A stretch of DNA of 64,000 bases from Escherichia coli (GTDB taxonomy: Bacteria > Pseudomonadota > Gammaproteobacteria > Enterobacterales > Enterobacteriaceae): the NCBI RefSeq assembly GCF_044324875.1, contig NZ_CP172185.1. One strand, given 5' to 3'. The notes under the pieces are model-generated. The model did not search any database. It had not been told where the DNA came from and was given only the letters and a program-made list of their open reading frames with translations. Positions 19,289-20,945 of this stretch are shown here, in pieces; position 1 is the first letter of the stretch, and each line of letters begins with the position of its first letter. A program made the position numbers and the translations under genes.

Positions 19289-20497
19289 TCATCGCTGGTT
19301 TTCCATAATCTGAGACATCACATAATCCGCCCATGCCTGCATCATCGGTATACGCTGATCCAGCAGATCAGTCCGGTGATATGCCGCCTCAACCTTATTT
19401 TTCAGCGTATGGGCAAGCGCCCTTTCCGCCAAATCCCGCGAATATCCCTGTTCGCTACACCAGTCCCTGAATGTTGAACGAAAACCATGTGCTGTAGCCA
19501 CTCGTCCGGGTATATCACTGATGGCCTTCTTTTTACGCAGAAAACTCGTCAACACCATATCTGAAAGGATCTGCTGCTTTCTGGGAGAAGGAAACACCAG
19601 TTCGTCATGCAGACCACGTATATTTTCCAGAACGTGAATGGCCTGTCGGGATAAAGGAACACGATGCTGTATCCTGGCTTTCATTCTTTCTGCGGGTATC
19701 GTCCATATCCGCTTATGAAAATCAATTTCAGCCCAGCGCATTCCCCTTGCTTCGCCCGAGCGGGTTGCTGTCAGTATCACCATTAATAACAGTGCCCGGG
19801 TAACATTATAAGGTTCATCTGTATACACACTGGTCGCCACAAAAAGCGGTAACTGCCTCCAGGGCATTGCCGGCTGGTGTTCATCACGTCCTCTTGATTG
19901 CTGTGGAAGCAAATGATCAACCACATCAACAGGATTCGCCACACAAAAACCATGCGCCCAGCCCCACTGCATAACAACATGAATGCGCTGTTTAACCCGG
20001 CTTGCCGTTTCTGACAAGGTTAACCAGACTGGACGCAGTGTTTCTGCCACGTCCGCAGCCGTAATCGAATCCAGCGTTTTTGCTCCCAGTTGAGGAAACG
20101 CGTAATTCTCAAGCGTCGATAACCACTGCCTTACATGCTTTGGATTTTCCCATCCAGGAGACAGTTCTGCATGTACACGCCTGGCTGCATCGGCAAATGT
20201 TGGGATAACAACTTTTTCAGCTTCAGCCTTTTTAATCTCCAGAGGATCATCACCTGCAGCAAGTTGCTCTCGCATTATCCGGGCAGTACGTGCAGCTTCA
20301 GCAATACTGACCTCAGGATAAGTTCCCAATCCAGCATTACGCCTTTTTTGTGTCACCGGACTTACATAACGAAAAACCCATTTACCCCTCCCCTTTACTG
20401 AAGAAGGATGAAGAGTCAGTCCTGTAATTCCCCCATGGGGCAATGGTTTGTCATCAGGTTTGATATGCCTTGCTTTAGTATCCGTCAATACTGCCAT
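19289..20497 (-). CDS. Tyrosine recombinase, P4-type integrase
   Basis: 402-aa ORF starting MAVLTDTKARHIKPDDKPLPHGGITGLTLHP...; C-terminal catalytic region ...TATRSGEA...HGFRSTFRDW...LAHTL...AYHRTDL. Confidence 0.9.
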   Translation of the reverse strand: MAVLTDTKARHIKPDDKPLPHGGITGLTLHPSSVKGRGKWVFRYVSPVTQKRRNAGLGTYPEVSIAEAARTARIMREQLAAGDDPLEIKKAEAEKVVIPTFADAARRVHAELSPGWENPKHVRQWLSTLENYAFPQLGAKTLDSITAADVAETLRPVWLTLSETASRVKQRIHVVMQWGWAHGFCVANPVDVVDHLLPQQSRGRDEHQPAMPWRQLPLFVATSVYTDEPYNVTRALLLMVILTATRSGEARGMRWAEIDFHKRIWTIPAERMKARIQHRVPLSRQAIHVLENIRGLHDELVFPSPRKQQILSDMVLTSFLRKKKAISDIPGRVATAHGFRSTFRDWCSEQGYSRDLAERALAHTLKNKVEAAYHRTDLLDQRIPMMQAWADYVMSQIMENQR

Positions 20498-20656
20498 ACG
20501 CTAATTCCTGTTACTCTGGTATGCCATTCAGTATGCCATTAGTCTCTCACTTCACTAAGAATACATTAGATAACATCGGACAGCAAAAATTGTAATGCAT
20601 TGTTTATAATGAGGTTATATAACACTCCCGGATTAAGTCAGATTTATTTCAGGCGG

Positions 20657-20756
20657 TCCCCCTCACCGCCATCTTTAAAGAAGAGCTCGTACGAAGGTAC
20701 GGGCTTTTTTTTCGTATATTGCACACACCGGGGGGATGAGAAGCCCCGACCGGGGT
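20657..20756 (+). repeat. att-like direct repeat copy 1 (degenerate tRNA-Ser 3' end plus terminator plus ~45 bp)
   Basis: tccccctcaccgcca...gctcgtacgaaggtacgggc T8 ...gggggatgagaagccccgaccggggt; near-identical to copy 2. Confidence 0.75.
20685..20712 (+). terminator. Intrinsic terminator hairpin (8-bp stem, GAAG loop, T8) in repeat copy 1
   Basis: gctcgtac-gaag-gtacgggc followed by tttttttt. Confidence 0.7.
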
Positions 20757-20833
20757 TCGACAACTGGCGACAGCCAGTTGGACAGACCGTGAACGCAGTG
20801 AGCGGGCTGCCCGCAGGGCGAGCGAAGCGAGTC

Positions 20834-20852
20834 AATCCCCCCCTCACCGCCA
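20834..20852 (+). other. 3'-terminal 19 nt of a tRNA-Ser gene (T-loop end, acceptor 3' strand CCTCACC, discriminator G, CCA): att core remnant
   Basis: AATCCCCCCCTCACCGCCA matches the 3' end of E. coli tRNA-Ser(GGA) as recalled; sequence upstream of it is not tRNA-like. Confidence 0.6.
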
Positions 20853-20865
20853 TATTTAAAGAAGA

Positions 20866-20894
20866 GCTCGTACGAAGGTACGGGCTTTTTTTTT
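20866..20894 (+). terminator. Intrinsic terminator hairpin in repeat copy 2
   Basis: gctcgtac-gaag-gtacgggc followed by ttttttttt. Confidence 0.7.
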
Positions 20895-20945
20895 CGTATA
20901 TTGCACACACCGGGGGGATGAGAAGCCCCGACCGGGGTACATTAG

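Follow-up and report, generated by a model that had tools for sequence, protein, structure and literature searches.

Integrase placement and tandem tRNA-Ser 3'-end repeats at the edge of a serX island in Escherichia coli

In a 64,000-nucleotide stretch of Escherichia coli DNA (hereafter the window), the gene of a P4-family integrase (int) faces two nearly identical repeats that carry a tRNA-Ser 3' end. The locus raises two questions: which of the repeats is an attachment site, and why does the integrase lie at the end of its island that is distant from the tRNA? A preliminary description of the window had taken both repeats to be att-like and had ascribed the position of int to an inversion or a rearrangement, possibly mediated by an insertion sequence (IS). 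Our analysis leads us, with high confidence, to read the region as the attR end, with int, of an island of the SRL PAI / O157 OI-48 / SpLE1 family that is integrated at serX; the second copy comes from a repeat array native to the serX locus. The features are as follows.

14611-14859, + strand: AlpA/Rox-like helix-turn-helix gene, candidate excision factor; identical to the 'AlpA family transcriptional regulator' of relatives, with PHROG matches
14875-16421, + strand: DUF3987 gene (YfjI-like primase/helicase), broken into two open reading frames (ORFs; 14875-15339 and 15336-16421); PHROG helicase/primase
16630-19267, + strand: IS21-family element (istA, istB); NCBIfam transpos_IS21 and IS21_help_AAA above cut-offs
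19289-20497, - strand: P4-family tyrosine integrase, SRL PAI / OI-43/48 / SpLE1 clade
20519-20538, + strand: doublet GTATGCCA-N4-GTATGCCA with a 12-bp period, candidate arm-type integrase-binding sites, 22 nt from the integrase start
20652-20671, + strand: attR crossover region, consisting of GGCGGT (island-derived), CCCCCTC and ACCGCCA, with the 14-bp core at 20658-20671
20677-20712, + strand: native serX intrinsic terminator, first copy; the same sequence lies directly 3' of K-12 serX and serW
20716-20852, + strand: complete RtT-like unit ending in a 19-nt tRNA-Ser 3'-end copy (20834-20852); Rfam RF00391 match, near-identical units in K-12 and 3PT
20853-20938, + strand: second terminator copy, then a truncated unit with which the array ends; colinear with 3PT and FDAARGOS_1291 at their empty sites
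20946-21632, - strand: DUF2726 gene (39% G+C; relatives' annotation), in place of ycdU-dgcT-pgaABCD
22219-23283, - strand: phoH, the first conserved core gene on the right, with efeB and efeO beyond it; ORF sizes and order as in K-12 phoH-efeB-efeO, and relatives' annotation

The integrase, its attR junction and excision

The intact ORF at 19289-20497 begins with ATG and encodes a 402-residue tyrosine integrase with the Pfam architecture Arm-DNA-bind_3, Phage_int_M and Phage_integrase (PF13356, PF22022 and PF00589, respectively). It has the attributes of the P4 family, namely an N-terminal arm-binding domain, a central domain and a catalytic domain with the R..HxxR..H..Y residues; its motifs start at residues 245 (TRSGE), 337 (HGFR), 361 (LAH) and 371 (AAYHR). 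P4 Int aligns with it over its full length at 32% identity (E 2e-49), and the integrase of Sakai SpLE1, ECs_1299, shares 97% amino acid identity with it over 400 residues, as expected of a member of the SRL/OI-48 integrase clade. A promoter scan of the region returned no sigma-70-like int promoter.

The integrase start codon faces, at a distance of 160 bp, the 14-bp core CCCCCTCACCGCCA (20658-20671), which is identical to the last 14 nt of K-12 serX and serW. This core is the reverse complement of the published direct repeat TGGCGGTGAGGGGG that flanks OI-43/48, corresponds to the final 14 bp of serW/serX and is identical to the repeat of the SRL PAI (PMC3064760). The junction sequence tttcaggcggt/ccccctcaccgcca/t.tttaaag (slashes mark boundaries) is identical between the window and Sakai SpLE1. 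Copy 1 of the repeats is a true attR, in which island DNA passes into the 14-bp tRNA-Ser core and then into the native serX flank. Direct reading of the crossover region reveals a GGCGGT/ACCGCC dyad on either side of a 7-bp spacer, and its two halves are candidate core-type integrase sites. The GTATGCCA doublet near the integrase start is kept at the equivalent position in three relatives (L001, L002 and L003) and in Sakai (L009), and a second GTATGCCA doublet lies 57 nt past the core at the attL of strain 135, a close relative. Judged by their positions, the doublets are probably arm-type integrase-binding sites. The arrangement typical of a P4-family attP, a tRNA 3'-end core upstream of int with arm-type repeats on both sides, is therefore present here with putative binding sites.

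Excision has been studied in other members of the family. Complete excision was demonstrated for OI-43/48, whose int lies at the ycdU/ser'X end (PMC3064760), and excision of the SRL PAI from serX needs int (reviewed in PMC7545054). By analogy with this literature on OI-43/48 and the SRL PAI, int-dependent excision between the 14-bp repeats would be expected here, and the present island copy is probably still able to excise. Its IS21 element near the int stop codon and its frameshifted DUF3987 gene indicate that it may nevertheless be decaying. The alternative that survives best accepts the attR and sees in this copy a fixed remnant in decay, no longer capable of excision. Consistent with it, a 19-bp deletion at about 15335 breaks the DUF3987 gene, which is intact in strain 135 (1566 nt), IS21 separates int from the alpA module, and the island copies of relatives contain many IS fragments and pseudogenes. 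However, the full-length integrase ORF retains the catalytic motifs, the alpA gene, which matches excisionase PHROGs 66, 2790 and 1553, is intact and identical to that of relatives, both the core of attR and the arm doublet are undamaged, and OI-48 copies still excise despite a heavy IS load (PMC3064760). We therefore regard loss of excision as rather unlikely.

The second repeat copy and the right flank

The two direct repeats to the right of the int start (20658-20756 and 20839-20938) are each about 107 nt long, are 98-100% identical and are spaced by 181-182 bp, a similarity far beyond chance; owing to a 1-nt indel in a T-run, a repeat search reported them as two families, of 55 nt and 52 nt. 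Copy 2 opens with the last 19 nt of K-12 serX and serW, AATCCCCCCCTCACCGCCA (20834-20852), and the hairpin and T-run that follow each copy correspond to the K-12 serX terminator (dG -20.5 kcal/mol). This value was obtained with RNAfold, as a terminator scan gave hairpins on the minus strand only. The preliminary description was accurate in stating that the int start codon faces two repeats that carry a tRNA-Ser 3' end followed by the native terminator, and the concern it raised that the repeats might prove unrelated to any tRNA 3' end is answered by their exact match to the final 14 and 19 nt of serX/serW. Its view of them as tandem att-like repeats at an attR-type junction stands for copy 1, which carries the core at the junction of island and serX flank, but not for copy 2, which belongs to a native array found in island-free genomes.

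The proposed alignment with the K-12 phoH-serX region showed an intact serX followed by three 181-bp RtT-like units, with no island. Empty sites with the order serX-array-DUF2726-phoH contain two cores in 3PT and one in FDAARGOS_1291; from the core rightward, both genomes align colinearly with the window (96.8% identity for 3PT), and their arrays stop at the same breakpoint as that of the window, before the DUF2726 gene. Because the array follows serX in island-free genomes, copy 2 is part of a native RtT-like repeat array and is no att product.

RtT RNA (RF00391) is known from the tyrT-tyrV operon and its 178-bp repeats. The serX units share with these repeats a homologous body, tandem placement downstream of a tRNA, a terminal copy of the 3' end of that tRNA, and a closing helix that pairs with the copy. 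They differ from the tyrT-tyrV repeats in mimicking tRNA-Ser(GGA) rather than tRNA-Tyr and in opening with a strong intrinsic terminator. The unit in the window scores 46.3 bits against the RtT model, a small margin over the gathering score of 45, and the three K-12 serX units score 46.3, 46.3 and 36.1 bits; the same place is labelled 'RtT sRNA' by PGAP in relatives. Weak Rfam matches to MicC, Thr_leader and snoZ17 in the region fell below their gathering scores and were set aside as the terminator hairpin or chance. Among the 28 Enterobacterales loci of the Ser type, counted as those with a tRNA within 400 nt, most have their units 57-66 nt downstream of an intact tRNA-Ser(GGA). These 28 loci and 68 loci of the Tyr type, whose units accompany tRNA-Tyr, all adjoin their cognate tRNA, with no cross-associations. 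Among the papers that could be searched, none connects serX with RtT, and the CoCoNuT preprint in its most recent version has dropped its mention of RtT. A typical RtT would be a stable RNA cut from the tRNA transcript; the strength of the terminator after serX argues that read-through into the array may be low.

Each RtT-like serX unit holds the full 14-bp island core inside its 19-nt tRNA 3'-end copy.

A unit bounded by tRNA 3'-end copies superficially resembles a tiny integrated element, and the two repeats could be imagined as an attR-remnant-attR series left by successive tandem integrations, the second element having later been lost. Against this, an identical unit follows serX in island-free K-12 and 3PT, the unit belongs to the RtT RNA family, its closing helix shows covariation with the cognate tRNA between the serX and tyrT loci, and in many genera it lies behind tRNA-Ser(GGA). 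A chimeric query composed of RtT unit, core and island left end, which represents the left end of the island joined to an internal array core, was recovered from 0 of 5426 genomes at a coverage of at least 80%; the use of internal array cores as attB, and tandem integration with it, was rejected on this result. We consider successive integration very improbable. In other genera, a tblastn search of 113 loci detected no integrase homologues beside RtT arrays.

To the right of the array, the preliminary description had remarked that the pga and ycdT genes that follow phoH in K-12 are not seen, and their absence is real. The genes pgaABCD, dgcT (ycdT) and ycdU are all missing, and the DUF2726 ORF takes their place between the repeats and phoH. 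The DUF2726-phoH arrangement occurs in 1043 of the 5426 genomes, island-bearing or island-free, and the missing pga/dgcT genes reflect a common chromosomal haplotype; that the island caused their loss was rejected, as the haplotype is also present in island-free genomes. No significant PADLOC match pointed to a defence-system role for the DUF2726 protein or the adjoining island ORFs.

Polarity of the integrase and the far end of the island

ARAGORN detected no intact tRNA in the whole window, in keeping with the earlier expectation that it lies outside, at the far left. In strain 135, which is 99.8% identical to positions 1-16629 of the window, an intact serX adjoins ghrA about 64.7 kb to the left of int, and its attL reads ...ccccctcaccgcca/gatatt, followed by a terminator borne by the island. 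The attR copy of the 14-bp direct repeat pair lies in the window, and the attL copy was observed in relatives only, whose island DNA is 99.8% identical; from these relatives we infer the same far end, with intact serX and attL, for the island of the window. In the window's strain, attL would read ...CCCCCTCACCGCCA/GATATTGAGCGC. Of 5426 complete E. coli genomes, 1355 contain an intact tRNA-Ser joined to the DUF4942 end of the island and 1263 the int-core-terminator junction, with O157, O111 and O145 among the latter.

The family and its layout are already known. The SRL PAI is from Shigella flexneri, and O-islands 43/48 of EDL933 (the tellurite-resistance/adherence island) correspond to SpLE1 of O157:H7 Sakai; at the nucleotide level, the OI-48 int is 99% identical to that of the SRL PAI (PMC3064760). 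The island of the window shares with this family the 14-bp core, an int at the cryptic ser'X end whose start faces the core from about 160 bp, an AlpA/Rox-type gene near int and, judging by its relatives, an intact serX beside ghrA at the opposite end. It differs in cargo, a raffinose/sucrose-type sugar-utilisation cluster in place of ter/ure/iha or resistance genes, in its flank, which is the DUF2726 haplotype where Sakai has ycdU, in the sequence after attR, where it keeps one full RtT-like unit and Sakai only a partial one, and in the strain-specific IS21 insertion.

These observations are best explained as follows. The attP of the island, like that of P4, comprises int, a putative arm doublet, a core some 160 bp upstream of the gene and a second putative arm doublet, but the core points the other way with respect to int. 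When this inverted core recombines with the last 14 nt of serX, the intact tRNA is therefore left at the far end, where the island supplies a new terminator, and int comes to lie beside the displaced 14-nt ser'X fragment, followed by the DNA originally downstream of serX. That DNA natively consists of tandem 181-bp units, each made up of a terminator, then a structured RNA and finally a 19-nt tRNA 3'-end copy, and the native array, rather than integration, provides the second att-like copy.

The preliminary description rightly placed int at the tRNA-distal end, opposite to phage P4: a 14-nt fragment lies 160 bp from its start, and serX at the far end in strain 135. Satellite phage P4 (int-attP, leuX) has the same integrase domain architecture and, in its annotated attP, the same sequence of arm doublet, core, arm doublet and int; its core lies 152 bp from int, and its arm repeats share GGCATA with those of the island on the int-sense strand. 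However, the orientation of the core relative to int is inverted between the two, and after integration int adjoins the intact tRNA in P4, whereas in the island it adjoins the displaced fragment. The geometry recurs in CP4-6 (thrW, intF), a cryptic prophage of K-12, in which the intact tRNA lies by a toxin-antitoxin/RadC module and int at the far end, where 110 bp separate its start codon from a displaced, directly oriented tRNA 3' fragment, although CP4-6 uses a 49-nt tRNA segment and the island 14 nt. IntF was rejected as a close relative, its best local match (30% over 54 residues) being remote only. The polarity of int is a trait of the clade and not a defining feature of P4-family integrases.

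The explanation by inversion or IS activity fails against this background. IS21 lies between the DUF3987 gene and the integrase, 15 bp beyond the stop codon of the latter. Its 6-bp target is duplicated on either side (GCAAAT, at 16624-16629 and at 19268-19273), and it is missing from the 8 closest genomes, in which both flanks of the insertion are colinear; it is a simple, strain-specific insertion. IS-mediated inversion was rejected, since the window and strain 135 stay colinear on both flanks of the element, with its duplicated target. That int moved to the tRNA-distal end by inversion or IS activity, from a P4-like ancestor with int beside the intact tRNA, is scarcely credible: P4 does have its core in tRNA-sense orientation upstream of int, hence int beside the intact tRNA, and IS21 does abut the int stop codon, but the junction of the window recurs in 1263 genomes and Sakai SpLE1, the layout is published as normal and excision-competent (PMC3064760), the geometry is unchanged in relatives that lack IS21, and the int-arm-core spacing mirrors that of P4.

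Implications for serX islands and RtT-like arrays

A wider proposal, which we consider a long shot, would join the array to the biology of the island: the arrays would encode functional tRNA 'top-half' mimic RNAs whose tRNA-matching segments stay in step with the adjacent tRNA, they would influence the island, for instance as non-productive integrase decoys or as terminator insulators of the displaced flank, and the inverted core of this clade would have evolved to keep int out of serX read-through.

For integrase biology nothing fundamental is altered, and the main value lies in a corrected reading: an island boundary that looks odd is the textbook attR end of widespread, experimentally characterised serX/serW islands. 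RtT-like arrays are native to the serX and tyrT loci and may be taken for tandem att sites, and tRNA-3'-end repeats beside an integrase are not necessarily att sites; in automated calling of island boundaries, direct-repeat searches may choose the wrong copy.

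The integrase and the repeats at its 5' side

The window is chromosomal E. coli DNA and runs in the opposite direction to K-12. Its first 16629 nt (1-16629) are 99.8% identical to an island present in eight complete genomes, and the features around the end of that island are as follows.

Features of the island end and its flank (window coordinates)
14611-14859: gene for an AlpA/Rox-like protein, matching excisionase PHROGs
14875-15339 and 15336-16421: ORFs of a frameshifted DUF3987 gene (YfjI-like primase/helicase) of the int-proximal module
16630-19267: IS21-family element (istA/istB), 15 bp past the int stop codon
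19289-20497, minus strand: P4-type integrase ORF, 402 aa, with Arm-DNA-bind_3, Phage_int_M and Phage_integrase domains
20716-20852: complete RtT-like unit of the native serX array (K-12 array in locus L004, 17023-17565, minus; tyrT/tyrV counterpart in comparison locus L012, 911-1738, minus)
20946-22218: DUF2726 gene and 586-bp spacer, replacing K-12 ycdU-ymdE-IS3-dgcT-pgaABCD between the serX array and phoH

The integrase aligns with P4 Int over its full length (32% identity, E 2e-49). Two direct repeats (20658-20756 and 20839-20938) follow on the right of the start codon; they are 98-100% identical and spaced 181-182 bp apart. The first opens with the core, CCCCCTCACCGCCA, which is the 14-nt 3' end of the tRNA-Ser(GGA) genes serX/serW, and the second with their last 19 nt; the hairpin and T-run after each repeat start are those found downstream of serX and serW in K-12 (fold -20.5 kcal/mol). 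The preliminary description, a P4-type integrase beside two repeats related to a tRNA-Ser 3' end and carrying its native terminator, is correct in every detail. The DUF2726 ORF, phoH, efeB and efeO follow in that order, and ARAGORN detected no intact tRNA in the 64-kb window. The IS21 element is flanked by a 6-bp target duplication (GCAAAT), its flanks are colinear, and it is missing from all eight of the closest complete genomes; it is therefore a simple late insertion, which argues against the inversion or IS-mediated rearrangement proposed earlier.

The cargo at 1-12000 is a raffinose/sucrose-like sugar-utilisation cluster (compare 1496-11199 of comparison locus L002), with genes for a carbohydrate porin, a kinase, PTS IIA, a GH32 hydrolase, an MFS transporter, an alpha-galactosidase and a LacI-type regulator.

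Junctions of the island with serX

In strain 135, a near-identical island-bearing relative, an intact serX adjoining ghrA is located ~64.7 kb left of the integrase, which supports the expectation of an intact tRNA-Ser at the far left end, outside the window. The island's direct repeat is the 14-bp core. The attL of strain 135 reads ...AATCCCCCCCTCACCGCCA / GATATTGAGCGCATG..., and attR reads TTTCAGGCGGT / CCCCCTCACCGCCA / TCTTTAAAG... in strain 135 and the window exactly alike, in support of an attR-type junction. At attL (strain 135 locus L006, 44262-44308, minus), an island-borne intrinsic terminator (GCGCATGTTA..TAACATGCGC plus T-run, -17.8 kcal/mol) sits directly after the reconstituted serX, the native terminator having been left at attR. 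A doublet, GTATGCCA-N4-GTATGCCA, common to the relatives and O157 Sakai, is separated from the int start by 22 nt; a second doublet is found at attL, 57 nt past the core. GGCGGT, the island-side half-site, and ACCGCC are perfect inverted repeats on either side of the 7-bp CCCCCTC. These candidate arm doublets and half-sites are compatible with a working att site.

The internal array copies (window 20834-20852) match the final 19 nt of the tRNA, a stretch that contains the whole 14-bp core. Among 5426 E. coli genomes, integration was observed at the genuine tRNA only, and the island's left end was joined to an internal array core in none (0/5426), so attB recognition would appear to need more of the genuine tRNA than these 19 nt.

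Both the junctions and published work on this island family suggest insertion by integrase-mediated recombination, with the island's attP core recombining with the 14 nt at the 3' end of serX. The left end of the island would thereby complete the tRNA and bring its terminator, while the int end would keep the 14-nt fragment that was displaced, along with the native terminator and the RtT-like array. For excision, Int would be needed and probably also the AlpA/Rox-like protein. Mobility of the window's copy may persist, as int, alpA and attR are all intact, or it may have been lost, given the 19-bp deletion that frameshifts DUF3987 (at about 15335, relative to strain 135) and the nearby IS21 element.

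The RtT-like array downstream of serX

In K-12 MG1655, whose site is without the island, the intact serX runs directly into an array of four units, three complete (181 bp) and the last truncated; a unit consists of the terminator, a ~120-nt body and a 19-nt stretch copying the tRNA 3' end. The order in island-free strain 3PT is ghrA, serX, one full unit, a truncated unit, DUF2726 and phoH, and island-free FDAARGOS_1291 is arranged likewise minus the full unit; the window and the empty site of 3PT are colinear from the core on, with 96.8% identity across 342 nt. Because these sites carry the units without an island, the second att-like copy is chromosomal and not an integration product. The reading of the repeats as tandem att sites is therefore rejected; comparison with K-12 serX confirms the tRNA-Ser 3' ends in the repeats, but not an att origin of the second copy. 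Across the loci compared, the array has 1, 2 or 4 cores, and such variation is the expected behaviour of a tandem array.

The Rfam RtT model (RF00391) covers the unit body and 3'-end copy, scoring 46.3 bits in the window (gathering score 45) and 46.3, 46.3 and 36.1 bits on the three K-12 serX units, and PGAP annotates an 'RtT sRNA' at this position in relatives. Alignment with the four K-12 tyrT/tyrV units reveals homologous bodies; in the closing helix, a 5' G-rich segment pairs with the tRNA 3'-end copy, and the Ser versus Tyr changes are compensatory. A conserved RtT core pattern, run against a single genome of each species, yielded 113 Enterobacterales loci. An intact tRNA-Ser(GGA) closely precedes the Ser-type unit at 28 of 34 loci (pattern start mostly 57-66 nt past the tRNA end), and tRNA-Tyr(GTA) precedes the Tyr-type unit at 66 of 77; variant-stem units come after tRNA-Tyr at both of two further loci. 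No Ser/Tyr cross-association of unit and tRNA occurs among the 113, and most loci lacking a tRNA close by sit at the edge of a locus or contig. The searchable literature library returned no paper linking RtT to serX; the Ser-type array, already detected by Rfam and PGAP, is the one mildly fresh point.

The phoH flank and the serX island family

The K-12 genes pgaABCD, dgcT and ycdU are all absent from the window, confirming that pga/ycdT are missing after phoH. Between the serX array and phoH, the chromosome carries an alternative haplotype, the DUF2726-phoH arrangement, found in 1043/5426 complete E. coli genomes; its occurrence with and without the island rules out an island-linked deletion of pga/ycdT. 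Across the full 3-kb query, just 67 genomes have it together with this integrase. The region is low in G+C (39%), and the DUF2726 gene has no NCBIfam or PADLOC match and a single PHROG match, of unknown function. Rfam also reports a strong match to Ysr251, a Yersinia antisense sRNA, antisense inside the phoH 3' end (22224-22417, plus; 191 bits, gathering score 100). Within the core-genome portion, naRNA4 (45705-45783, plus; 79 bits) and the cspA thermoregulator 5' UTR (56466-56888, minus; 158 bits) score above their gathering scores.

The placement of int had been considered atypical, a view that the comparison does not support: the same layout is found in Sakai SpLE1, OI-43/48, K-12 CP4-6 and 1263/5426 complete E. 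coli genomes, the last being those with the int-5'-end/core/terminator junction at ≥80% query coverage; the intact tRNA-Ser/DUF4942 junction of the other island end occurs in 1355/5426. In SpLE1, ECs_1299 is 97% identical to the window integrase and adjoins ycdU, the junction sequence being identical; the intact serX lies at the opposite end of the 86-kb element. In CP4-6 at thrW, the start of intF is separated by 110 bp from a directly oriented 49-nt fragment of the thrW 3' end. The annotated P4 attP shares the island's plan (arm doublet, core 152 bp upstream of int, second arm doublet), and its arm repeats have GGCATA in common with the island doublets on the int-sense strand. The sole difference is one of polarity: the P4 core is tRNA-sense on that strand, whereas the island core is antisense, which alone places the island integrase beside attR and not beside the intact tRNA.

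OI-43/48 of O157 is flanked by a perfect 14-bp repeat, TGGCGGTGAGGGGG, identical to that of the SRL PAI (Bielaszewska et al. 2011, PMC3064760), and it corresponds to the window core read on the opposite strand. Its int lies at the ser'X (cryptic) end, and complete excision restoring serW/serX has been demonstrated (PMC3064760); int is required for excision of the SRL PAI from serX (reviewed in PMC7545054). The cargo differs, being sugar-utilisation genes in the window island, ter/ure/iha in OI-48 and resistance genes in the SRL PAI. The feature thus falls within a known island family that is widespread and has been studied experimentally.
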